A stretch of DNA of 44,411 nucleotides from a virus (lineage: Duplodnaviria > Heunggongvirae > Uroviricota > Caudoviricetes), in IMG/VR virus record IMGVR_UViG_2711768022_000010; one strand, 5' to 3'. This document shows positions 2,794-22,189 of this stretch, in pieces; position 1 is the first letter of the stretch; the number at the start of each line of letters is the position of its first letter. The translations under genes were made by a program, and so were the position numbers. Below the pieces are notes generated by a model that did no database searches, was not told the origin of the DNA, and saw only the letters and a list, made by a program, of their open reading frames with translations.

Positions 2794-5386
2794 TTGCATA
2801 TTCCTTAGCCCAGCGGGGCAGTGATAACGTCTTAATAGCTGGCCATTCATCGGTATTGAGGCAGTCAGCCAGGGTTCGCAGATTGCGGTGATATTCCAGC
2901 TGACCTGCCAGTTTTGCTTCTTCGCCCATCATGAAAATTTCAACCGGATAACGTCCGCATTCAATAGTTGTGCTGGCAACCAGAAAAACGAAAGTTGGCT
3001 GCACTCCAAACTGTGCTTCATAACCGTCACTGTAGAATGCATCCTGAACGTGATAGCGGTAGTCGTAATAAGCGGTTTTGAATCGTTGAATATCCGCCGT
3101 AGTTTTCACGTCCATGATCCAGTGAAATTCAGGGATAATTTTGTCCGGACGGCACCGACACAAAATTGCTGTTTCAGGATCTTCCCAGTAAATTGATGAT
3201 TCAGCGTGTCCGGCGCTTTCAACAAGCCATTGCCCCAGCGGCAAAGCCATAACGCTCTGATACATGAGTTCAATTTTCCGGCCTTCTTCGGCAGTGATAA
3301 CCGTTTTTCCTGTGCTTGCGCATTCCCTCAGAAACGCTTTCTCTTCTTCTTTTCCGGAGTTTGTCCGGCGGTTAAATTCAGGTGCTACGATAAAGCGGTT
3401 ACTGAATTCTTCCGGCTCAAGTACCCGGCAGTGGAAAGCGGTTCCTAAATCGAGCGTTTTTGTCTTTGTGGTGTCCACGGGGGCATTTTTACGCCACAAA
3501 TACAGTGCCGGAGTATCAGCAATGTCATCGAGCTGAGACTTACTGACACCGGGACCCGCGTGGTAATTCTCATTCGAAATTCCGTAATAAATACCTGGCT
3601 CTATGTCTTCTACGATTACGGGATCTGCGACTTCGCCAGTTTCATCACTGCAATCGCGATGCGGATCGCTGCCAGCATTCTCATTGTGCGGATGTTCAGC
3701 GCCTTCCATTTCCTCCGGATCATTTTCCTTAGCTTCAACCTGACTCTCTTCATCGAATGTTTCCTGGTATGTTGCGTCGCCCATCACCGCACCACAGTCA
3801 GGGCAGTTATCCCCGCCAGTCTGGCCGCAGGCATTGCAGGCTATTTCCGGTTCCTGTTGCACTACTGGCTCAGGTTGATTCATATCCGGGCTGGTTTTTT
3901 CCGTTTCTGGCTGGTTCTGGTACACACAATCGCGAGTCTGGATCCCCTTTACCCATTTCGGATCGTTCGGGTCGCTAATTCCGTCAACAAATTCACCACG
4001 TGATGCAGCAAGCAATTTATCGGCATCGACAGGATTTTTTGATGGAATGTTTTTCCGGGCTTCATGGAGTTCTGCCCGCAGTTCCTGATATTTCGCATCA
4101 ACAGAATTTACCTGTGACTGAGCATCCAGCGGCTGCGTGTCCTGATGATGTTCAGTTGCGTCCGGTTCCATTGTTTCAGCCTCTCCCTGTTCAACTGCCG
4201 TTGTTCCAGATGGTTGCGGTTTTTCTTCATCATCCTGTTTTCCTTCTTCTGTTACTCGCTGCGGCATCGGGGCAGAGGAGCGACCGCAGGCAATATCCAC
4301 GATTTCCGGATCAGGGTTGGCATGATCGGTTTCAGTCAGTACTTTGTTCAGATATTCAGTGACGTGCGCGGGGATGACCTCGATCCCAATTGGTGCTTCT
4401 TTTACGGACGCAACCACGATGGCGCGGGAATAATCCAGCCCGCCAGGCATGGTGATGAATTTGTCGCGGAAAACAGAAAAGGGCGGTTTATTTTCAGCGA
4501 TAATTTCCTCAATGCGTTTAGCGTGTGCCGGATGAAGGTTATAGATGTCCAGATCCATTGAACGGGCCAGTACGCCAGTGGCTACGTCCCGCGCCAGTGA
4601 CGTCAGATCGTGTACGAAACCTTCGCCGCGATCGGTGAGGTTTCCGCCGCCAGCATTAGCACCGGAAGCCGTGCGAGTGATGTGTGAAACACGATTACCC
4701 TTCATCCACTCTTTTGTCAGCAGTCCTCGATCGGTGTAGTCAGCGTTCAGGTATGCTTCGAAAAAAGCAGTTATCAGTCCCAGGTTTGAATTACCAGGAT
4801 TAGGGAAAACTTTGTCAGTGTCACGAACCAGTTTGTGGAGTTCGCGAATTTCCAGCGGGTCGAGCAGGCTGGTTTTGTGGGAAACAGCCAGGGCAGTAAC
4901 AGCCGGTAGTTCTTCAGCCCGAGCAATGTGTAATGCCTGGAGTCCGTCGCGTGAAACGTGCGTTACCGGTTTTTCGCTGCCGTGTTGAGCAAGCCAACGA
5001 ATGGGCAGTTCCTGGCCAGAAATTGGGAGTAGCATATTCTCCTCAATCTCAGTCATGTCTTCGCCGTTGACGTTGGTATTGCCTTGATAGTGAGCGTTGT
5101 CTGGTGCTGCTCCCGGTTTTAGTTCCCATGTCATGGAGTCTTTGCTGAGTTGATAGCGTTCACTCCAGGTAAAATCGATCTCACCTTCAGCGGGCAGGTC
5201 ATTAACGACAGGAAAATTCGTGGCAACAGCTTTAAAATAGCTGCTCAGTTTTTTACCTGACTTAACGATCAGGTAGTCCAGAGTGGCACAGGTCGATTCA
5301 AAATCGTTGCTTGCCCACAGGACGACGTCAGGTTCACCGGATGATTTTTTCGCTTTCCGTAACAGGAAGAGTGGTTTTGTGCTCAT
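2786..5386 (-). CDS. recE: RecE exonuclease VIII
   Basis: 866-aa ORF, same length as K-12 RecE; acidic central linker and C-terminal nuclease domain; immediately upstream of recT on the same strand. Confidence 0.93.
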
Positions 5387-5487
5387 TGTTTTTTAACCTC
5401 AACTCAGATTAAAATTCGTTTTGTTCAGTGAATGATCTTGCCGGATACACACTGTTCATAGCCTGCGCCATACGCAGGCTATTTCTT

Positions 5488-11758: not shown

Positions 11759-11896
11759 ACGTTACTAGATCAAAGAGCATTAGTTCATATGTAAATTGAC
11801 ATTTTTCTGGCACAGGGGAGAGCTAGCGTGGTTGTCCGCTTTGTGCCAATAGCGGACATTGCTGGCTCATGGTATGTTAGTTTAAGGAGGCAGGTT

Positions 11897-12919
11897 ATGC
11901 CCTGTATTTCGCTGTGGTATAATAGTTGCGCAATTGATACAAGGGAGCGTTACATCGTGAAAATTGTTTTCGAGGTTAATGGAAAGAAAGTTCCACTAAA
12001 ATCTTTAAAATACATAAGCAAAAAAGATCAACTCGAAGTAATGAAAAACTGGTTCTTTGAAAACTTTGAAGATCCGGCAAATGCTTGTCCGTATGAAAGT
12101 AGAGAAGGTGGCTATGCTTACATATATGGCGGGCCGTATGATGCGAGCGAAGAACTACAATCCATCTTCGGTCAATATGTTAAATCTGAGTATATTGAGG
12201 AATTAGTAGATGAATTACAAACACAATGTTTTGACTGGTCTGGAAACTCAAATAATATAGATGATTGGTACGATGATGATATCTACGACGCTGTAACGTC
12301 TTCCGGTAATCCGTATTTAAAATTCATTGATAATATCGATAAAATAAAAAAACTTGCAAAAGATAAAACTGAACAACAGCAAAAAAACCACTTGCTTAGT
12401 TTGCTCTACACGAATGTTATTACAGCTTTGGAAACGCTTTATGTTGAGCTATTCATTAATTCTATAGAGAAAGATGATGTCTACATAGCCAATTGTATAG
12501 AAAAAGGTAAGACTGAATTTAAAGTAAGCAAAGATATTGCTGCGTTGCCTTTCAAGGGTGAACCCATCGAGAAAATTAGGGGAGAGCTAATCAGGTCAAT
12601 CAAGGAACACTTGATCAGTGCAAGCTGGCATAGCACTAAAAAGGTAATCGACCGCTATGAAGCTACATTCGATATAAAAGTACAAAAAGACTGTCCGATA
12701 GAAGCTATTGAATTGGCAACCCTCAATCGAAATCACTTAGTGCATCGTGGTGGAAAGGATAAAGAAGGGAACCTCGTAGTGATTACAGACCAGGATCTTG
12801 AAACGCTGATTGAAAATGCATCGAACCTGGCAATTATGCTCTACAACAGTTTAAATGTAGCAACGAATAAAACCACCATTTTGCAACCAGATGACAAACC
12901 GTTCATTCATGAATTTTAA
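11897..12919 (+). CDS. Hypothetical protein A of AT-rich cassette; C-terminal RNxxxH (HEPN-like) motif
   Basis: ATG 11897 with AGGAGG RBS 6 nt upstream (alternative GTG 11957 downstream of an extended -10 TGgTATAAT at 11915-11923); C-terminal segment ELATLNRNHLVHRGG fits the HEPN Rx4-6H signature; visibly AT-rich; not recognised from K-12 Rac. Confidence 0.7.
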   Translation: MPCISLWYNSCAIDTRERYIVKIVFEVNGKKVPLKSLKYISKKDQLEVMKNWFFENFEDPANACPYESREGGYAYIYGGPYDASEELQSIFGQYVKSEYIEELVDELQTQCFDWSGNSNNIDDWYDDDIYDAVTSSGNPYLKFIDNIDKIKKLAKDKTEQQQKNHLLSLLYTNVITALETLYVELFINSIEKDDVYIANCIEKGKTEFKVSKDIAALPFKGEPIEKIRGELIRSIKEHLISASWHSTKKVIDRYEATFDIKVQKDCPIEAIELATLNRNHLVHRGGKDKEGNLVVITDQDLETLIENASNLAIMLYNSLNVATNKTTILQPDDKPFIHEF

Positions 12920-12934
12920 TAGCGCAGGTCATAC

Positions 12935-13936
12935 ATGGATATTCGCACACGAAAGACAAAATTTTTAGAGTCGTTAGATTCAACTGAAGTGATACGCAAA
13001 GCAGTAAGTCTCGCTATAGATTGCATTATTGATAATCATAATAGTAATGAAGATACCCCCTTAGTTATTACCAGCTATGATGATCTCTGTAGAATCCAGG
13101 TGCTAAATTATGTACAGGAGTTTTGCGAAGCTGCATTCCCTGATATGGATGAATATTACTTTAGTCCTAACATACTTCGCATCAACGGCAAGACTAGTGA
13201 AGAAGCTTGTATTAACTTAATTAAACTCTTAAGAAGTACAAAAGGCATGCTATTCTGGTCCGATGCCCCATCGTGGTTCGCTAGCCTCCCCGACGGATTA
13301 TTCCATGTTGTTAACATTGATCAAAAAATCGTTACTCGCGGCCTTAATAAGAAAAACTCTAAGCCGACAATAATCAATAAAGATTACAGTGTAGATACAC
13401 TACTATCAGAGCTATTTTTGAATGGCGCACACATGGAGCAACCCAACGTACACAACGTTTCTGAGGGAAACATGAAGTTCTATGATGAATGCCATGCTGG
13501 ATTAATCAGACCAATACCCGCTCCAATAGGCGCGTCATACGATGAAGAGATCACAATTAATTCTCCAGATTGGCAAAAGCTCGCGTGTGTAGCTTTACGC
13601 CGCTATCAGTCGAAGGAATGTCATGACGGAATGCAATGGGATACAACCGATCATGGTTGGACTGATGTAATCGCGTATCCATTCGTCGAAGAAATACAAT
13701 CAATGGATAATAGTGGTTATCGACAATGTTTAGTTGGGCTGGTCACAATAAACAATTCAAATGCAAATTCTCCGTACCTATCTACCGTTTGGATACATCC
13801 ATTTTATCGCAGGAGAGGGTTATTAAGTAAGTTATGGCCAAAATTACAAGAGTTATATGGAAGTAACTTCGAAATTGAGCGACCTAATGAAAATATGAAA
13901 GCATTTCTGAAAAGTGCGAAACACGCAGATTACTAA
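12935..13936 (+). CDS. Hypothetical protein B of AT-rich cassette (333 aa)
   Basis: Starts 15 nt after gene A stop (operon-like); AT-rich; C-terminal stretch VWIHPFYRRRGLLSKLW vaguely resembles a GNAT acetyl-CoA-binding motif (weak); no recognised homolog. Confidence 0.72.
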   Translation: MDIRTRKTKFLESLDSTEVIRKAVSLAIDCIIDNHNSNEDTPLVITSYDDLCRIQVLNYVQEFCEAAFPDMDEYYFSPNILRINGKTSEEACINLIKLLRSTKGMLFWSDAPSWFASLPDGLFHVVNIDQKIVTRGLNKKNSKPTIINKDYSVDTLLSELFLNGAHMEQPNVHNVSEGNMKFYDECHAGLIRPIPAPIGASYDEEITINSPDWQKLACVALRRYQSKECHDGMQWDTTDHGWTDVIAYPFVEEIQSMDNSGYRQCLVGLVTINNSNANSPYLSTVWIHPFYRRRGLLSKLWPKLQELYGSNFEIERPNENMKAFLKSAKHADY

Positions 13937-16308: not shown

Positions 16309-16598
16309 TGGTGAATTTACGTAAAGCGGCTAAAGGCCAGATGTGCCAGATCAGAATCCCTGGCTACTGCAATCACAATCCCGAAACCTCTGTGCTGGCG
16401 CATTACAGGCTGGCGGGGACGTGCGGAACAGCGACAAAACCACATGATATGCAGGCGGCGATAGCCTGTAGCTCATGCCACGATCTAATCGACGGGCGGG
16501 TAAAAACCAGCGATTACACCAAAGAAGAATTGCGCCTGATGCATGCTGAAGGGGTTTTTCGCACACAAGAAATCTGGAGAAAGAAAGGTCATTTATGA
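16308..16598 (+). CDS. YbcO-like putative nuclease (DUF1364), Cys-rich
   Basis: 96 aa; MVNLRKAAKGQMCQIRIPGYCNHNPETSVLAHYRLAGTCGTATKP closely parallels recalled DLP12 YbcO; start overlaps upstream stop (TAATG). Confidence 0.8.
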   Translation: MVNLRKAAKGQMCQIRIPGYCNHNPETSVLAHYRLAGTCGTATKPHDMQAAIACSSCHDLIDGRVKTSDYTKEELRLMHAEGVFRTQEIWRKKGHL

Positions 16599-17137
16599 TT
16601 TACCCAACGAATACAGGAAAAAGCGGAGAACACCTTCGCCTCACCACGCTGGAAAGTGTCTGGATTCAGGGAAAACTACGTATGTGGGGGCGCTGGTCGT
16701 ATATTGGCGGTGGCAGGTCAGGGAATATGTTCAATCAGTTGTTGGCATCCAAAAAACTGACGAAAACAGCCATTAATGAAGCCCTGCGCAGAATGAAAAA
16801 AGCGGGAATAGAGAAAGCTGAGCTGGAAGCGTTTTTGCGAGAGATGATCAACGGCAAGCAAAAGAGCTGGCTGGCGCATTGTACTGATGCAGAGGCGTTA
16901 TGTATTGATCGAGTCATAAGTGAGGTGCTGGCAGAGCATCCAGGATTGATTTGCATTCTCCGGCAACGCTATGAAGGGCGGGGGATGACTAAGCGCAAAA
17001 TGGCTGAATTGCTAAATGATGCACACCCAGAGTGGTGTTTTAGCACATGCGAAAAACGGATTGCTAATTGGTTAGCTGTTGCTGAGTATGCCCTATATAT
17101 TCCCATGCGTGAATCATTTGCTGAGAAAATGGCTTGA
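16595..17137 (+). CDS. Putative late antiterminator Q (phage-21/82-type family)
   Basis: 180 aa; RMWGRWSY motif reminiscent of the RWGAW motif of Q21-type antiterminators; lies immediately upstream of terminator hairpins and the lysis cassette. Confidence 0.6.
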   Translation: MIYPTNTGKSGEHLRLTTLESVWIQGKLRMWGRWSYIGGGRSGNMFNQLLASKKLTKTAINEALRRMKKAGIEKAELEAFLREMINGKQKSWLAHCTDAEALCIDRVISEVLAEHPGLICILRQRYEGRGMTKRKMAELLNDAHPEWCFSTCEKRIANWLAVAEYALYIPMRESFAEKMA

Positions 17138-17223
17138 TTTCTTACGTATAAACTGCTTCAATTTTGCTATGCTTCGCAAAGCTGTATCGCGAGGCGGATT
17201 GCAGACATGGACATCGTAAAAAA

Positions 17224-17244
17224 ACCGCTTAATGCGGTTTTTTT
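17224..17244 (+). terminator. Rho-independent terminator downstream of Q (candidate tR')
   Basis: ACCGC-UUAAU-GCGGU hairpin followed by U7 (17238-17244); about 90 nt after the Q stop. Confidence 0.5.
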
Positions 17245-17564
17245 ACGTCAGGAAAGCAGGGGAGAATGCTGCTAGTTGGGCAACTGGTCTTTCTGCTCCA
17301 AATTATAACAGAGACCAGTTATAGTTTCGGTGCTGTGTTTTTTTTACAATATTGTGATAACACATTGCTGGCGGGAGTTTTGATATTTCTTGGCAGGGGC
17401 TGATGATGCGTTATCCTGATGTCGTCAACTCATATAAAATGAGATGAGAGATCATTGCAGGGTGGTTTGTAATTCGCTGTTTAGCGGGACAATATGTTGT
17501 CTGATACAAGACACCCGACGCCTCAGATTACTATAATAAAGACGAAGCATCCTTTGTATTGACC

Positions 17565-17590
17565 AACCGCCTGTTTAGGCGGTTCTTTTT
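17565..17590 (+). terminator. Rho-independent terminator
   Basis: Perfect 7-bp stem AACCGCC/GGCGGTT with 6-nt loop followed by CTTTTT. Confidence 0.5.
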
Positions 17591-18181
17591 GGGCTGGTTT
17601 ATTGTATGCCAAATGATTATTAAAAAGGTTGTGTTAATAACAAGATCCGAAATAATATGCCTGCATATTTTTATCTTGCTTATATTCTGCATATTGTGCA
17701 TAGCAGGCTCATCCCTGCAATCAAAACTGTATGATGAGTATTTTTTGTTTTCCTTTTTTCCAGTCATCTGATGATGACCTGCTTCTTTTTAATCCGGATC
17801 GACATCAGTTTTTTAAGATAATTCCTGCGAGTTATATGCATAAATGCCACAAACTCCGCATTTTATGTGGTTGGGAGTTGCCGGGCGCGCAGTGAGTTTG
17901 CTAAGAAAACTCCTGCATGGTGAATCCCCCTGTGCGGTGGGGTGATACCATTAACCTTTTCTGTCGCCGACAGGTATCACGAACATTTTGTTCACCGGGA
18001 GGCACCCGGCACCATGCACTTCAATAGATTCTCTCCACATTATGGATATTCTTTCAGAATATCCCACGCAGACTTTGTGTAAATGTTAACAAATGTGCGT
18101 TTTATTTGATCTGATTCGCTGTTTGAGCGTCCAAAACAACGGTATATATAATCCTTTACTATATGACATATGTGAGGAAAA

Positions 18182-18610
18182 ATGGGTTTTCGTAGCGCAT
18201 CAATTCTTACGTTGATTATTAGTGGGATTATTATCGGGTGCACTGATGCTGTATCGACAAATTATCATGACCGTACATCATATTACTCCGATAAAGCAAT
18301 AGAGACACAGTATGTGAGTTCATCTGAACGTACTTCTGATGTTAGTGAGGATATCCGTCTGTATGCCCATCAAATCAAGAGCGCCATCGAAAAACAGTTC
18401 GGGGATGCGAGTAAGTATTCAGGAAAAGAGTGTACACTGAGAATGCATATGGCCCCGAATGGCCTTCTACTGGAGGTTAAAAGAGAAAGTGGAGACCTCG
18501 ATTTATGTCGTGAAGCGATGAATGCGATAAAGAATGCTGATATACCTGCCCCCCCTTCGCCGGAAGTATATAAAGTATTTCAAAATGGGGTGCTGGATTT
18601 TAAACCCTGA
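18182..18610 (+). CDS. Lipoprotein with TolA C-terminal domain (TolAIII)-like domain
   Basis: Signal peptide with lipobox IIGC; C-terminal YAHQIKSAIEKQFGDASKYSGKECTLRMHMAPNGLLLEVKRESGDLDLCREAMNAIKNADIPAPPSPEVYKVFQNGVLDFKP closely parallels the recalled C-terminus of E. coli TolA; RBS GAGGAAAA; candidate promoter TTGAGC (18123-18128), 18-nt spacer, TATAAT (18147-18152). Confidence 0.8.
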   Translation: MGFRSASILTLIISGIIIGCTDAVSTNYHDRTSYYSDKAIETQYVSSSERTSDVSEDIRLYAHQIKSAIEKQFGDASKYSGKECTLRMHMAPNGLLLEVKRESGDLDLCREAMNAIKNADIPAPPSPEVYKVFQNGVLDFKP

Positions 18611-18760
18611 TATTTATTGTTTTGTAATAAACGGTTTCGGCTTAGGTTTGTTCTGACACAGCTACGGCACTGAGCTAAATTTAGCGGATAGTCAGCTCTG
18701 AGCCAGTGGCGGACGTAACAACTACTATTGCTGAGATTTTAATGGATTGAGGAGCAAGAA

Positions 18761-19156
18761 GTGGGATTAAAGAAAATCGTTATGTTGACTTTTTGGGTCG
18801 GTTTTGTTGCGGGATGCACACCTTTACACCCTTCAGATTGCCACAAAACTACTGCTACAGGTAGTTGCAGTTCAGGACGCTGGGATGATCAGGATGAATG
18901 GGGGGCGCAAGCGCGGGGAATCAGAGCTGCAATTAATGCCAAACTTGATGAGCCGCATAACTGGAAAGGGAAAAAATGCAGGTTGCATATGGAATTCTCT
19001 CAGGATGGCACGGCGTTAAAAATATCTACCAGTAACGGTGATAAAGCCTATTGCGAAGCGATAAAGTCCGCAGCTCATAAAGCCAAATTTCCGGCCTTCA
19101 ACAATCCGGAAGTCTACAGAGATTTTCAGAAATCTGGCTTTGACATGCGAGGTTAG
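18761..19156 (+). CDS. Second, more divergent TolAIII-like lipoprotein (paralog)
   Basis: GTG start after GAGGAG RBS; lipobox VAGC; C-terminal KCRLHMEFSQDGTALKISTSNGDKAYCEAIKSAAHKAKFPAFNNPEVYRDFQKSGFDMRG aligns with the same TolAIII-like core (two conserved Cys, EVY..FQ motif). Confidence 0.75.
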   Translation: MGLKKIVMLTFWVGFVAGCTPLHPSDCHKTTATGSCSSGRWDDQDEWGAQARGIRAAINAKLDEPHNWKGKKCRLHMEFSQDGTALKISTSNGDKAYCEAIKSAAHKAKFPAFNNPEVYRDFQKSGFDMRG

Positions 19157-19281
19157 CTCTTCAATTACTATATCTCATTCATAGCAAACTGACAGATTTG
19201 ATGATGTTCTATATACGAAACCTGTGATGTCAAGTCTGAGCTAATACAAATAAACATAATATCAGAGAAATACATTTTATT

Positions 19282-19304
19282 AGCTCGCTACGGCGAGCTT
19301 TTTA
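19282..19304 (+). terminator. Rho-independent terminator after the lipoprotein morons
   Basis: Perfect stem AGCTCGC/GCGAGCT with tetraloop TACG followed by TTTTTAT. Confidence 0.55.
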
Positions 19305-19407: not shown

Positions 19408-19623
19408 ATGAAATCCATGGACAAAATTTCAACAGGCATTGCCTACGGCACCTCCGCAGGCAGTGCTGGCTACTGGTTTTTACAGTTGCTCGATAGAGTA
19501 ACTCCGTCACAGTGGGCTGCAATCGGTGTGCTGGGTAGTCTGGTATTTGGCCTGCTGACGTACCTGACAAACCTTTATTTCAAGATTAAAGAAGATAAGC
19601 GCAAGGCTGCGAGAGGTGAATAA
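19408..19623 (+). CDS. Class II holin / pinholin, phage 21 S-like, dual-start (MKSM)
   Basis: [71 protein letters not shown] (71 aa) recalled as S21-like; two in-frame Met codons three codons apart; RBS GGAGGTGAGG. Confidence 0.85.
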
Positions 19624-20133
19624 TGCCTCCATCATTACGAAAAGTCGTTGCTGCTGCTATTGGTGGCGGAGCAATTGCTATAGCATCAGTGTTAATCACT
19701 GGCCCAAGTGGTAACGATGGTCTGGAAGGTGTCAGCTACATACCATACAAAGATATTGTTGGTGTATGGACTGTATGTCACGGGCATACAGGAAAAGACA
19801 TCATGCTCGGTAAAANNNNNNNNNNNNNNNNNNNNNNNNNNNNNNNNNNNNNNNNNNNNNNNNNNNNNNNNNNNNNNNNNNNNNNNNNNNNNNNNNNNNN
19901 NNNNNNNNNNNNNNNNNNNNNNNNNNNNNNNNNNNNNNNNNNNNNNNNNNNNNNNNNNNNNNNNNNNNNNNNNNNNNNNNNNNNNNNNNNNNNNNNNNNN
20001 NNNNNNNNNNNNNNNNNNNNNNNNNNNNNNNNNNNNNNNNNNNNNNNNNNNNNNNNNNNNNNNNNAGCAATGGAAAGGTCTCATGACTCGTCGTGAGATT
20101 GAGCGTGAAATCTGTTTGTGGGGTCAGCAATGA
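19623..20133 (+). CDS. SAR endolysin (phage 21 R-like lysozyme), interrupted by an assembly gap
   Basis: N-terminus [30 protein letters not shown] (Gly/Ala-rich signal-anchor-release domain) and C-terminus ...[21 protein letters not shown]; 250 N at 19816-20065 breaks the frame, so the two parts appear as separate ORFs. Confidence 0.75.
19816..20065. other. Assembly gap (250 N) inside the endolysin gene
   Basis: Run of n characters; flanking coding frames differ. Confidence 0.99.
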
Positions 20134-20594
20134 ACAGAGTAACCGCGATTATCTCCGCTCTGGTTATCTGCATCATCGTCTGCCTGTCATGGGCTGTTAA
20201 TCATTACCGTGATAACGCCATTACCTACAAAGCCCAGCGCGACAAAAATGCCAGAGAACTGAAGCTGGCGAACGCGGCAATTACTGACATGCAGATGCGT
20301 CAGCGTGATGTTGCTGCGCTCGATGCAAAATACACGAAGGAGTTAGCTGATGCGAAAGCTGAAAATGATGCTCTGCGTGATGATGTTGCCGCTGGTCGTC
20401 GTCGGTTGCACATCAAAGCAGTCTGTCAGTCAGTGCGTGAAGCCACCACCGCCTCCGGCGTGGATAATGCAGCCTCCCCCCGACTGGCAGACACCGCTGA
20501 ACGGGATTATTTCACCCTCCGGGAACGACTGGTAATGATGCAGGCCCAACTTGAAGGTGCTCAGCAATACATAACCGAGCAGTGTTTAAAGTAA
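20130..20594 (+). CDS. Rz-like inner-membrane spanin (i-spanin)
   Basis: [22 protein letters not shown]-terminal TMD followed by coiled-coil; ATGA overlap with endolysin stop. Confidence 0.85.
20350..20535 (+). CDS. Rz1-like outer-membrane lipoprotein spanin (o-spanin), embedded in Rz in another frame
   Basis: 61 aa; signal peptide with lipobox VVGC; proline-rich mature part ([16 protein letters not shown]); fully nested in the Rz gene. Confidence 0.8.
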
Positions 20595-20731
20595 AATCTT
20601 AACTACAATATGATTCATTTTGATGATTGTTTCATAAGGAACAGTGAAGTAAGATCTAAGAGGAGTTAAATTTTATACAGTATAATCATAATATTGCAGC
20701 AAGGTGGTTATAATTGAAAGAATATTTAGAT

Positions 20732-22189
20732 ATGAATACATCTCATGTAAGAGTTGTTACTCATATGTGTGGGTTCCTGGTTTGGCTCTATAGTCTTTCA
20801 ATGTTGCCACCAATGGTTGTAGCATTGTTTTATAAAGAAAAAAGCCTGTTCGTTTTCTTTATAACTTTCGTTATATTTTTTTGCATTGGTGGCGGAGCGT
20901 GGTATACAACTAAGAAATCTGGCATTCAATTACGTACCCGTGATGGGTTTATTATAATTGTAATGTTTTGGATTTTGTTTTCTGTTATTAGTGCATTCCC
21001 TTTATGGATTGACTCAGAACTTAATTTAACGTTCATTGATGCTCTGTTTGAAGGGGTTTCTGGAATAACAACAACAGGAGCAACTGTAATTGATGATGTT
21101 AGTTCATTACCTCGGGCATATTTGTACTATCGGTCACAGTTAAATTTTATAGGTGGTTTAGGAGTTATTGTTCTGGCGGTTGCAGTATTGCCATTATTGG
21201 GTATTGGTGGTGCAAAGCTTTATCAGTCAGAAATGCCGGGGCCATTTAAGGATGACAAACTCACTCCCCGCCTGGCCGATACGTCACGGACACTGTGGAT
21301 AACTTATTCTTTATTAGGTATTGCTTGTATTGTCTGTTATAGACTTGCAGGAATGCCTTTGTTTGATGCTATTTGTCACGGGATTTCCACAGTTTCGCTT
21401 GGTGGTTTCTCAACTCATAGCGAGAGTATCGGATATTTTAATAACTATTTGGTTGAGCTGGTGGCTGGTTCTTTTTCCCTGCTATCGGCTTTCAACTTCA
21501 CTCTTTGGTATATTGTTATTAGCAGAAAAACGATAAAACCTTTAATCAGAGATATTGAACTTCGTTTCTTTCTGTTAATAGCCTTAGGGGTGATCATTGT
21601 TACCTCTTTCCAGGTCTGGCATATAGGTATGTATGACTTGCATGGAAGTTTTATTCATTCGTTTTTTCTTGCCAGCTCCATGCTCACTGATAATGGTTTA
21701 GCTACGCAGGATTATGCAAACTGGCCCACGCACACGATAGTGTTTTTGCTGTTGTCAAGTTTCTTTGGGGGATGTATAGGTTCAACCTGTGGTGGAATTA
21801 AGTCACTTCGATTTCTTATACTTTTCAAACAAAGCAAACACGAGATAAATCAGCTTTCTCATCCCAGAGCGTTGTTGAGTGTAAATGTAGGAGGGAAGAT
21901 AGTTACAGATCGTGTAATGAGGTCTGTATGGAGTTTCTTTTTTCTTTATACTCTCTTCACGGTGTTTTTTATACTGGTGTTAAATGGTATGGGATATGAT
22001 TTTCTTACATCATTTGCAACAGTGGCTGCATGTATTAATAATATGGGATTAGGTTTTGGGGCTACTGCATCGTCATTCGGAGTGCTTAATGACATTGCAA
22101 AATATTTAATGTGCATAGCTATGATTCTTGGTCGCCTTGAAATTTATCCTGTTATTATATTGTTTTCAGGTTTTTTTTGGCGCTCCTAA
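20732..22189 (+). CDS. trkG: TrkG potassium uptake transporter (prophage moron)
   Basis: 485 aa from MNTSHVRVV; multi-pass membrane protein with repeated pore-loop GxG-containing segments; visibly AT-rich; known Rac cargo gene. Confidence 0.9.
   Translation: MNTSHVRVVTHMCGFLVWLYSLSMLPPMVVALFYKEKSLFVFFITFVIFFCIGGGAWYTTKKSGIQLRTRDGFIIIVMFWILFSVISAFPLWIDSELNLTFIDALFEGVSGITTTGATVIDDVSSLPRAYLYYRSQLNFIGGLGVIVLAVAVLPLLGIGGAKLYQSEMPGPFKDDKLTPRLADTSRTLWITYSLLGIACIVCYRLAGMPLFDAICHGISTVSLGGFSTHSESIGYFNNYLVELVAGSFSLLSAFNFTLWYIVISRKTIKPLIRDIELRFFLLIALGVIIVTSFQVWHIGMYDLHGSFIHSFFLASSMLTDNGLATQDYANWPTHTIVFLLLSSFFGGCIGSTCGGIKSLRFLILFKQSKHEINQLSHPRALLSVNVGGKIVTDRVMRSVWSFFFLYTLFTVFFILVLNGMGYDFLTSFATVAACINNMGLGFGATASSFGVLNDIAKYLMCIAMILGRLEIYPVIILFSGFFWRS

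Follow-up and report, generated by a model that had tools for sequence, protein, structure and literature searches.

TolA is a handle required for cell entry by some colicins and filamentous phages. Acting from the periplasmic side, the small outer-membrane (OM) lipoproteins Llp (T5) and Cor (phi80, N15, HK022) stop phage or colicin entry by blocking FhuA. In work by Levengood-Freyermuth, Click and Webster (J Bacteriol, 1993), domain III of TolA (TolAIII) expressed in the periplasm from a plasmid reportedly made E. coli tolerant to group A colicins, and leaky. Overproducing a ligand rather than the receptor domain also disturbs this step, as periplasmic pIII-N1 from filamentous phage sequesters TolA, blocking colicin A and lowering phage uptake by four logs (PMC10424213). 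Here, we analyze two tandem genes, which we call A and B, in IMG/VR virus record IMGVR_UViG_2711768022_000010, an intact Rac-type prophage whose whole stretch of 44,411 nucleotides (nt) we refer to as the window. Each gene encodes a predicted lipoprotein ending in a complete copy of TolAIII. Our tentative reading, for which our confidence falls somewhat short of even, is that A and B are OM-tethered decoys for the TolA-binding parts of group A colicins or of filamentous-phage g3p.

Llp and Cor inactivate a receptor by binding it, whereas A and B would imitate a co-receptor, and there is no homology between the two groups. The engineered periplasmic domain offers a functional precedent for a decoy, with a free TolAIII giving tolerance to group A colicins, but it was artificial, soluble, overproduced, and leaky, whereas A and B are natural, predicted to be lipid-anchored, and diverged. 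In pIII exclusion the same contact is disturbed, that of TolAIII with g3p-N1 or a colicin, and the outcome is colicin tolerance and phage resistance (PMC10424213); there, however, the ligand is overproduced to occupy TolA, whereas A and B would be a receptor copy occupying the ligand, and no sequence relationship connects them. With E. coli TolA itself, A and B share the domain III fold, the family (PF06519), and the disulfide pair, and A also keeps strand beta3 and the helix. TolA, however, has a membrane anchor, a domain II, coupling to TolQR and the proton-motive force, and a place in the tol-pal operon, whereas A and B have a lipoprotein signal, a place in a prophage late operon, and a lower G+C content.

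The original prediction was of two tandem lipoprotein open reading frames (ORFs) with lipoboxes IIGC and VAGC, and both ORFs are present where it had put them, on the same strand:

18182-18610, + strand: gene A, ATG start, 142 amino acids (aa), GAGGAA 5 nt upstream.
Product of A: signal peptide 1-19, Cys20 (lipidation predicted), disordered linker 21-54, TolAIII 55-142.
18761-19156, + strand: gene B, GTG start, 131 aa, GAGGAG 6 nt upstream.
Product of B: signal peptide 1-18, Cys19, linker with conserved Cys27 and Cys36, TolAIII approximately 44-131.

For B, we preferred the GTG start to the ATG at 18782 used by RefSeq because of the GAGGAG upstream of it, the charged n-region that it yields, and the ATG that a plasmid homolog has at the equivalent codon. 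As features of an OM lipoprotein we took a positively charged n-region, a hydrophobic h-region, a lipobox of the form [LVI][ASTVI][GAS]C, and the absence of Asp at position +2. Both proteins have all of them, as for substrates of signal peptidase II and the Lol pathway that are sorted to the OM. The N-terminus of A reads MGFR-SASILTLIISGIII-G-C(20)-T, with lipobox IIGC, and that of B reads MGLKK-IVMLTFWVGFVA-G-C(19)-T, with an h-region of IVMLTFWVGFV and lipobox VAGC. The residue at +2 after the lipobox Cys is Thr in both and, because of this, the E. coli Lol sorting rule predicts that A and B are sorted to the inner leaflet of the OM. The "periplasmic decoy" proposed earlier should read as a decoy tethered, by prediction, to the inner face of the OM. 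The lipobox is kept throughout the A family and the B family. Linkers of the B family also contain two extra conserved cysteines, spaced C-x7-C-x8-C counted from the lipid-carrying Cys, which suggests that they may form a small disulfide loop.

The C-terminal domains of A and B match TolAIII both in sequence and in modeled structure. Against Pfam PF06519, the TolA C-terminal domain (cut-off 25 bits), A scored 82.6 bits (E 2.4e-23) and B 54.6 bits (E 1.3e-14). Residues 55-142 of A align without gaps to E. coli TolA 334-421 (E ~1e-27; PDB sequences 1s62, 3qdp, 2x9a, and 1tol), with 52 of 86 residues (60.5%) identical over TolA 336-421. B matched the TolAIII sequences of the PDB at E 5e-9 and is identical to TolA at 26 of 77 positions (34%); A and B are 28% identical to each other. 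The C-terminal ~85 residues of A had been said to match TolA almost position for position; the ungapped alignment and the PF06519 and PDB matches bear this out, and the TolA sequence given for that comparison agrees with that in the PDB. In AlphaFold models the two domains have predicted local distance difference test scores of ~90 or more, and the N-terminal segments 21-52 (A) and 20-38 (B) are disordered. The top Foldseek match of the A model was TolAIII chain 2x9a_B (root-mean-square deviation, rmsd, 0.6 Å; template modeling score, TM, 0.94), from a structure of IF1 g3p bound to TolAIII, and that of the B model was TolAIII 3qdp (rmsd 1.0 Å, TM 0.93), with TonB C-terminal domains appearing as distant matches only for either model. 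Cysteines equivalent to the disulfide pair of TolA, C363 and C388, are present in both proteins. We conclude that A and B each carry a complete copy of TolAIII, including its disulfide pair.

A and B are not TolA, however. Both lack domain I, the TolQR-coupled membrane anchor, and have a lipoprotein signal peptide instead. The long Ala/Lys/Glu-rich helical domain II is missing as well; the proteins have 142 and 131 aa, compared with 421 aa for TolA, and a segment of just 20-35 residues precedes the domain. Neither gene lies in a tolQ-tolR-tolA-tolB-pal operon. Matches to the NCBIfam models of TolA, NF007065 and TIGR02794, are confined to model positions 293-386 of 387 and 265-362 of 362. Both proteins fall below the cut-off of the NF007065 equivalog (107.8 bits for A and 53.7 for B, versus 213), and B also falls below that of TIGR02794 (47.2 bits), whereas A exceeds the latter (75.6 bits versus 59.45) by its C-terminal domain alone. 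This is presumably why RefSeq (Prokaryotic Genome Annotation Pipeline; e.g. NC_011415.1) calls A "tolA: cell envelope integrity protein TolA", a name that overstates what A is and with which prophage-bearing genomes appear to hold two tolA genes.

The domain assignment is already visible in public annotation, so the bare observation is not new. What the searched literature leaves unaddressed is that these are stand-alone OM lipoproteins, that they form distinct mobile families, that they are very frequent, including on pO157 and in the IncI1 backbone, and what their function is. Within the full-text literature that we searched, no paper characterizes a prophage or plasmid TolAIII lipoprotein. 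Two leads were discarded: the tolA of a study of O157 in soil and water is the host gene, and a paper on uropathogenic E. coli merely lists "TolA protein, hypothetical protein" within a 1,355-bp strain-specific segment. Both proteins match the full 128-position profile of PHROG 5772 (A, E 1.6e-62; B, E 6.7e-65), which is annotated as "unknown function", and neither matches a defense family of PADLOC-DB 2.0 at E up to 1. These results agree with the earlier statement that no function had been characterized.

Structural work on TolAIII has identified the surfaces that its ligands use. Beta-strand addition at beta3 (L417, D418, K420) is needed by g3p-N1 of Ff and IF1 phages, colicin N, and the N-terminus of TolB, and proline substitutions in this strand abolish binding of all three ligands and result in a tol phenotype (PMC4339652). 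The opposite edge, 375-LLDIKP-380, is the binding site of colicin A, which makes cation-pi contacts to K368, K379, and K396 (PMC3365938). At these sites, A and B compare with TolA as follows:

Strand beta3: LDFKP in TolA, identical in A, FDMRG in B (no proline, Asp kept, Lys to Arg).
Helix: QIKSAIE in TolA, identical in A, GIRAAIN in B (I344, A347, and I348 kept).
Colicin A box: LLDIKP in TolA, LLEVKR in A, ALKIST in B.
Lysines 368/379/396 of TolA: H/K/K in A, E/S/H in B.
Salt bridge K368-D377 of TolA: H and E in A, charge-swapped to E and K in B (B residues 77/86).

That the LDFKP strand and the QIKSAIE helix are identical in A makes it more plausible that these proteins are decoys. An uncoupled TolAIII would then be displayed at the inner face of the OM on a tether of 20-35 residues, where it would be the first to meet the TolA-binding epitopes of colicins A, N, K, and E1, of the TolB-dependent E colicins, of related Enterobacterales bacteriocins, and of g3p-N1. 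The decoy would grip its ligand by beta-strand addition and, without a link to the proton-motive force, import would stall, leaving the lysogen or plasmid host tolerant to Tol-dependent bacteriocins, resistant to Ff- and If1-type phages, or both. With the g3p, colicin N, and TolB face almost unchanged in A and the colicin A face remodeled in B, A would imitate the entire TolA surface, and the pair may cover different ligands.

The identical strand in A is also the one that binds TolB, and this fits a different role. A and B, made mainly late through Q-dependent read-through, could bind the N-terminus of TolB or compete with TolA, blocking the TolA-driven release of Pal from TolB; the resulting transient tol phenotype, with a weakened, blebbing OM, would aid the spanin step or the release of vesicles or virions. 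According to a review, altered TolB interactions could regulate vesicle production (PMC7391070). Such sabotage of Tol-Pal is the main rival to the decoy reading, but we think it unlikely.

Both genes are under purifying selection. Values of dN/dS (the ratio of nonsynonymous to synonymous substitution rates) were 0.08-0.13 for B, across prophage, plasmid, Serratia, and Enterobacter copies, and 0.09-0.24 for the domain of A, compared with 0.5-0.8 for the signal and linker of A. Low values in the domain and high values in the linker are the pattern expected if the folded domain matters and the linker serves as a tether. Across the A and B families, the Cys of the lipobox, the two disulfide Cys, and a few residues of the core do not vary. 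We also considered that the unit might be a non-functional remnant, a captured tolA fragment drifting in a prophage, given that debris accumulates in prophage late regions and that RefSeq calls A simply "tolA". However, the ORFs are intact and have gained lipoprotein signals, their dN/dS lies at 0.08-0.24, and the cassette is at least 99% identical in ~780 genomes, with diverged intact copies across genera. A G+C content of 40-43% speaks against a recent copy of E. coli tolA, and this figure together with the 60% identity led us to reject a recent capture of the host gene. The data on selection and distribution effectively refute this explanation, and we regard it as extremely improbable.

B had been described as a more divergent paralog of A. 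B does carry TolAIII, but it is not simply a diverged A, as it belongs to a separate and wider family and has its own cassette. Positions 17509-18611, which comprise a leader, an STnc100 small RNA (sRNA), and gene A, recur at 83-94% in other lambdoid prophages whose Q is a different one, and the homology ends exactly at the stop codon of A. Positions 18726-19159, essentially the B ORF with its ribosome-binding site, recur at 80-88% on plasmids and in other genera. These shared segments indicate that A and B arrived as separate cassettes.

The A family is narrow, with ~46 clusters at 90% identity, nearly all from E. coli or Shigella. We found A-like genes in 898 of 5,426 complete E. coli genomes, with 959 places on chromosomes and 3 on plasmids, and almost always at the Q-holin site. 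Variants of A at 91, 74, and 66% identity again lie between Q (of two types) and a P21-type holin, usually without B. A tblastn search found no B copy in the other prophages carrying A variants (loci L013-L020), so the tandem of A and B appears specific to the Rac-type element. Just 1 of 50,697 deposited phage genomes carries both genes (mEp460_ev081, LR597641.1 40342-41751, 99.9% identity); this phage, judging by its name perhaps an evolved or recombinant derivative, may have taken the segment from a Rac-type prophage. Such rarity among phages is not what a contribution to lysis through Tol-Pal would predict.

The B family, by comparison, is broad (370 clusters) and extends to Citrobacter, Enterobacter, Klebsiella, Raoultella, and Serratia. 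Among the same complete E. coli genomes, 1,269 have B-like genes, with 536 places on plasmids. Among the contexts that we sampled, a B-like gene on IncI1 conjugative plasmids directly follows nikA-nikB, 68 nt 3' of the relaxase gene nikB and on the same strand, and it seems to belong to the nikAB transfer operon in the plasmid backbone:

8001-8429, same strand as nikB: B-like gene on an IncI1 plasmid (locus L002).
4965-5396, same strand as nikB: B-like gene on IncI1 plasmids (loci L021 and L022).

On the IncF plasmid pO157, a B-like gene lies beyond psiB-psiA-hok and before toxB. Chromosomal singletons are found in Serratia marcescens, beside GmrSD and HEPN genes, and in Enterobacter, among ordinary metabolic genes. 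TolA-dependent filamentous phages use I and F pili as their receptors, and the B-carrying genera make Tol-dependent bacteriocins, among them colicin A of Citrobacter, cloacin DF13, the klebicins, and bacteriocin 28b. The presence of relatives on IncI1 and IncF plasmids, whose pili are such receptors, and beside defense genes in Serratia makes a decoy function more plausible, and the chromosomal singletons in Enterobacter and Serratia, independent of lysis genes, support it further. Conversely, the strong constraint on B-family genes that have no lysis genes around them, whether on plasmids or as chromosomal singletons, argues against sabotage of Tol-Pal during phage release.

TolAIII lipoproteins are not limited to these two families. 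A third lineage (144 aa, lipobox ITAC, C-terminus ALDFRL, 33% identical to A) is present on ~310 plasmids, mostly from Klebsiella. In the example that we examined, on the conjugative IncF plasmid NZ_CP024040.1 of Klebsiella pneumoniae, the lipoprotein gene adjoins one for a secreted CVYC-containing protein of the thioredoxin fold (locus L012, 6217-7246). A Gabija-like ATPase and UvrD-helicase pair is located a few kb away on the same plasmid. An exhaustive, profile-free search with B returned 130 representatives from diverse bacteria, mostly 110-160 aa long, with a lipobox and a TolA/TonB-type C-terminal domain. Judged from these sequences, short TolAIII-type lipoproteins are a general theme. 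It is possible, though we remain doubtful, that OM-tethered TolAIII copies form a widespread, unrecognized class of mobile-element defense that acts by co-receptor mimicry. This class would cover morons in prophage late regions, IncI1 and IncF backbones, and small chromosomal islets across Enterobacterales, with the Rac tandem as a two-decoy array of differing ligand ranges. Its members would catch Tol-dependent bacteriocins and filamentous-phage g3p ahead of any contact with energized TolA. Conjugative plasmids would then carry an antidote to the filamentous phages drawn by their own pili.

The same breadth is compatible with a role in envelope fitness or host interaction, in which the TolAIII fold would be a generic OM binding module. 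Such proteins could provide serum, bile, or stress tolerance in the manner of lambda Bor or TraT, or have peptidoglycan-associated or TonB-box-like partners. Host-fitness roles are well established for OM lipoprotein morons of lambdoid phages, diverse bacteria have many short lipoproteins that end in a TolA/TonB-type domain, the pO157 copy adjoins toxB, and the Enterobacter copies sit amid housekeeping genes. However, A keeps the ligand faces of TolA, with 60% identity overall and beta3 and the helix identical, beyond what a generic scaffold would need, and nothing in our data points to such a phenotype. We consider this explanation quite improbable.

The surroundings of A and B in the window are those of an intact Rac-type prophage. 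On their 5' side lie intR, recET, kilR, sieB, and ydaSTUV, then a NinB-like gene, an HNH gene, and Q; on their 3' side lie holin, endolysin, and Rz/Rz1 genes, trkG, a parB-like gene, and the terminase, head, and tail genes. The nearest of these are:

16595-17137, + strand: Q-like late antiterminator (DUF1133 type); phrog_753 "anti-termination protein Q-like", E 2e-79; DUF1133 in E. coli SE11.
19408-19623, + strand: P21-type holin; Pfam Phage_holin_2_1, E 4.5e-35; essD in SE11.
19623-20096, + strand: endolysin, partly N-masked; rrrD in SE11.
20118-20594, + strand: Rz; Pfam Phage_lysis, E 3.7e-53; lysis protein in SE11.
20350-20535, + strand: Rz1, embedded in Rz; from the ORF list.

A run of masked bases at ~19800-20050, an artifact of the supplied sequence, breaks the endolysin ORF, and the translation there is X and the G+C content 0.17. 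The Trk potassium transporter gene trkG (20714-22189, + strand) comes directly after Rz, as in K-12 Rac, and the window represents an intact, ancestor-like Rac late region that has since been lost in K-12.

Because 16595-17137 encodes a Q-like antiterminator, A and B sit at the Q-to-lysis site, where Shiga toxin (Stx) phages carry stx. The location between Q and the lysis genes, as first proposed, is thus upheld by the phrog_753 match upstream and by the holin, endolysin, and Rz downstream. The insertion site is the same as that of stx and the cargo is different; tRNA genes, such as those that precede stx in Stx phages, were absent from the whole window. The G+C content of the A-B unit is 40-43%, compared with ~50% in the nin/Q genes and Rz. 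The unit has the marks of a moron, namely insertion between phage genes, a terminator, a candidate promoter, a distinct G+C content, and sharp cassette borders, and its layout of promoter-like site, terminator, and deviating G+C is that of the lambda bor and lom and stx morons. To our knowledge, the A-B unit is missing from K-12 Rac and from most lambdoid phages.

This position, immediately 5' of the holin gene and 3' of Q, together with the A variants in the same slot of other lambdoid prophages, speaks for late interference with Tol-Pal. In addition, a CP-933O gene annotated as TolA, EDL933_2012, whose homology to A and B is unchecked, was induced 32-fold by ciprofloxacin (PMC11125564). Against this, the unit has its own terminator ahead of the holin gene, as for a moron expressed in the lysogen, and most lambdoid phages lyse without genes of the A or B type.

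If A and B are decoys, they would be expressed from their own promoter in the lysogen and, after induction, also by Q-dependent read-through. The signals that flank the unit are:

18123-18152, + strand: candidate sigma-70 promoter of the A-B unit, TTGAGC-18-TATAAT, 10/12 consensus.
19282-19304, + strand: intrinsic terminator of the A-B unit, AGCTCGC-tacg-GCGAGCT then TTTTTAT.

The terminator, which had been noted before, is real: its hairpin (19282-19299) with the U-run has a folding energy of -13 kcal/mol (z -4.5), and 0 of 200 shuffles were as good. Between A and B, we looked for another terminator or promoter, but there was only a poor fold (18611-18760, z -0.8) and a 9/12 promoter-like site (18653-18681), and we rejected both. 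Since nothing terminator-like lies between A and B, they are probably co-transcribed as one transcript.

The ~1 kb between Q and gene A contains no convincing ORFs, but several non-coding features:

17134-17162, + strand: weak promoter-like site after the Q stop codon, TTGATT-17-TTCAAT, read by eye only.
17215-17247, + strand: hairpin and U-run, candidate tR', 80 nt after Q; -19.7 kcal/mol, z -8.3.
17508-17584, + strand: second promoter-like site, AAGACA-18-TATAAT, and terminator-like hairpin (17565-17584, z -1.9).
17885-18071, + strand: STnc100-family prophage sRNA; Rfam RF02076, full-length, 86.6 bits versus a gathering score of 47, E 2e-18.

The first two resemble a pR'/tR' pair and are candidates for this role, with a transcript of ~60-70 nt. 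An isrK-like Rfam match at 17171-17244 was sub-threshold (21.6 bits versus 50). We also considered 17508-17584 as a Q-linked pR'/tR' and rejected it, as this segment accompanies gene A into prophages with a different Q and the hairpin at 17215-17247 is stronger; on this evidence it appears to belong to the non-coding leader that accompanies gene A. STnc100 has been described as a prophage sRNA family (bioRxiv 10.64898/2026.05.13.724894), and the sRNA and gene A may move as one unit or be transcribed together.

Elsewhere in the window, the variable segment that separates the replication genes from the nin region (11828-13936, + strand) holds adjacent ORFs of 363 and 333 aa with weak Pfam matches below cut-off (HEPN_RES_NTD1, 22 bits; GNAT, 20 bits). 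In the otherwise near-identical Rac prophage of SE11, DUF262 and TPR genes and an IS3 take their place. The two ORFs may be an uncharacterized defense pair.

Several considerations weigh against A and B being decoys. Their binding, their localization, and their expression in the lysogen are predictions from sequence. The promoter originally assigned to the unit is present and has 10 of 12 consensus positions, but the region as a whole has 11 promoter-like sites compared with 7.3 +/- 2.9 in shuffles, a count that is not significant alone. Since g3p and colicin N bind the face that TolB also uses, a faithful decoy should titrate TolB and cause a leaky, tol-like phenotype, and such a cost looks high when 16-23% of E. 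coli genomes have the gene. This is the greatest difficulty for the decoy reading and, at once, the strongest argument for sabotage of Tol-Pal. Infection by filamentous phages requires a conjugative pilus, and most Rac lysogens lack one; for the prophage copies, then, only the colicin half of the proposal has an obvious selective reason. The plasmid pO157 is non-conjugative, and the Enterobacter copy has no defense context. The null result with PADLOC is neutral and yields no support.

Calling A "tolA", as RefSeq does, is misleading and could introduce errors into analyses of pangenomes or gene essentiality. If A and B are decoys, receptor-domain mimicry would be added to the few mechanisms by which prophages and plasmids protect their host at the envelope, and it would be present in a sixth to a quarter of sequenced E. 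coli, on pO157 of enterohemorrhagic E. coli, and on IncI1 resistance plasmids. It would then affect colicin competition in the gut, colicin or pyocin-like therapeutics, and the use of plasmid-dependent filamentous phages against resistance plasmids. If A and B instead act by disturbing Tol-Pal, this system would have its first natural regulators, and vesicle production and phage release could be manipulated through them. In both cases, A and B offer natural probes of the TolAIII surfaces that serve TolB and those that serve invaders.

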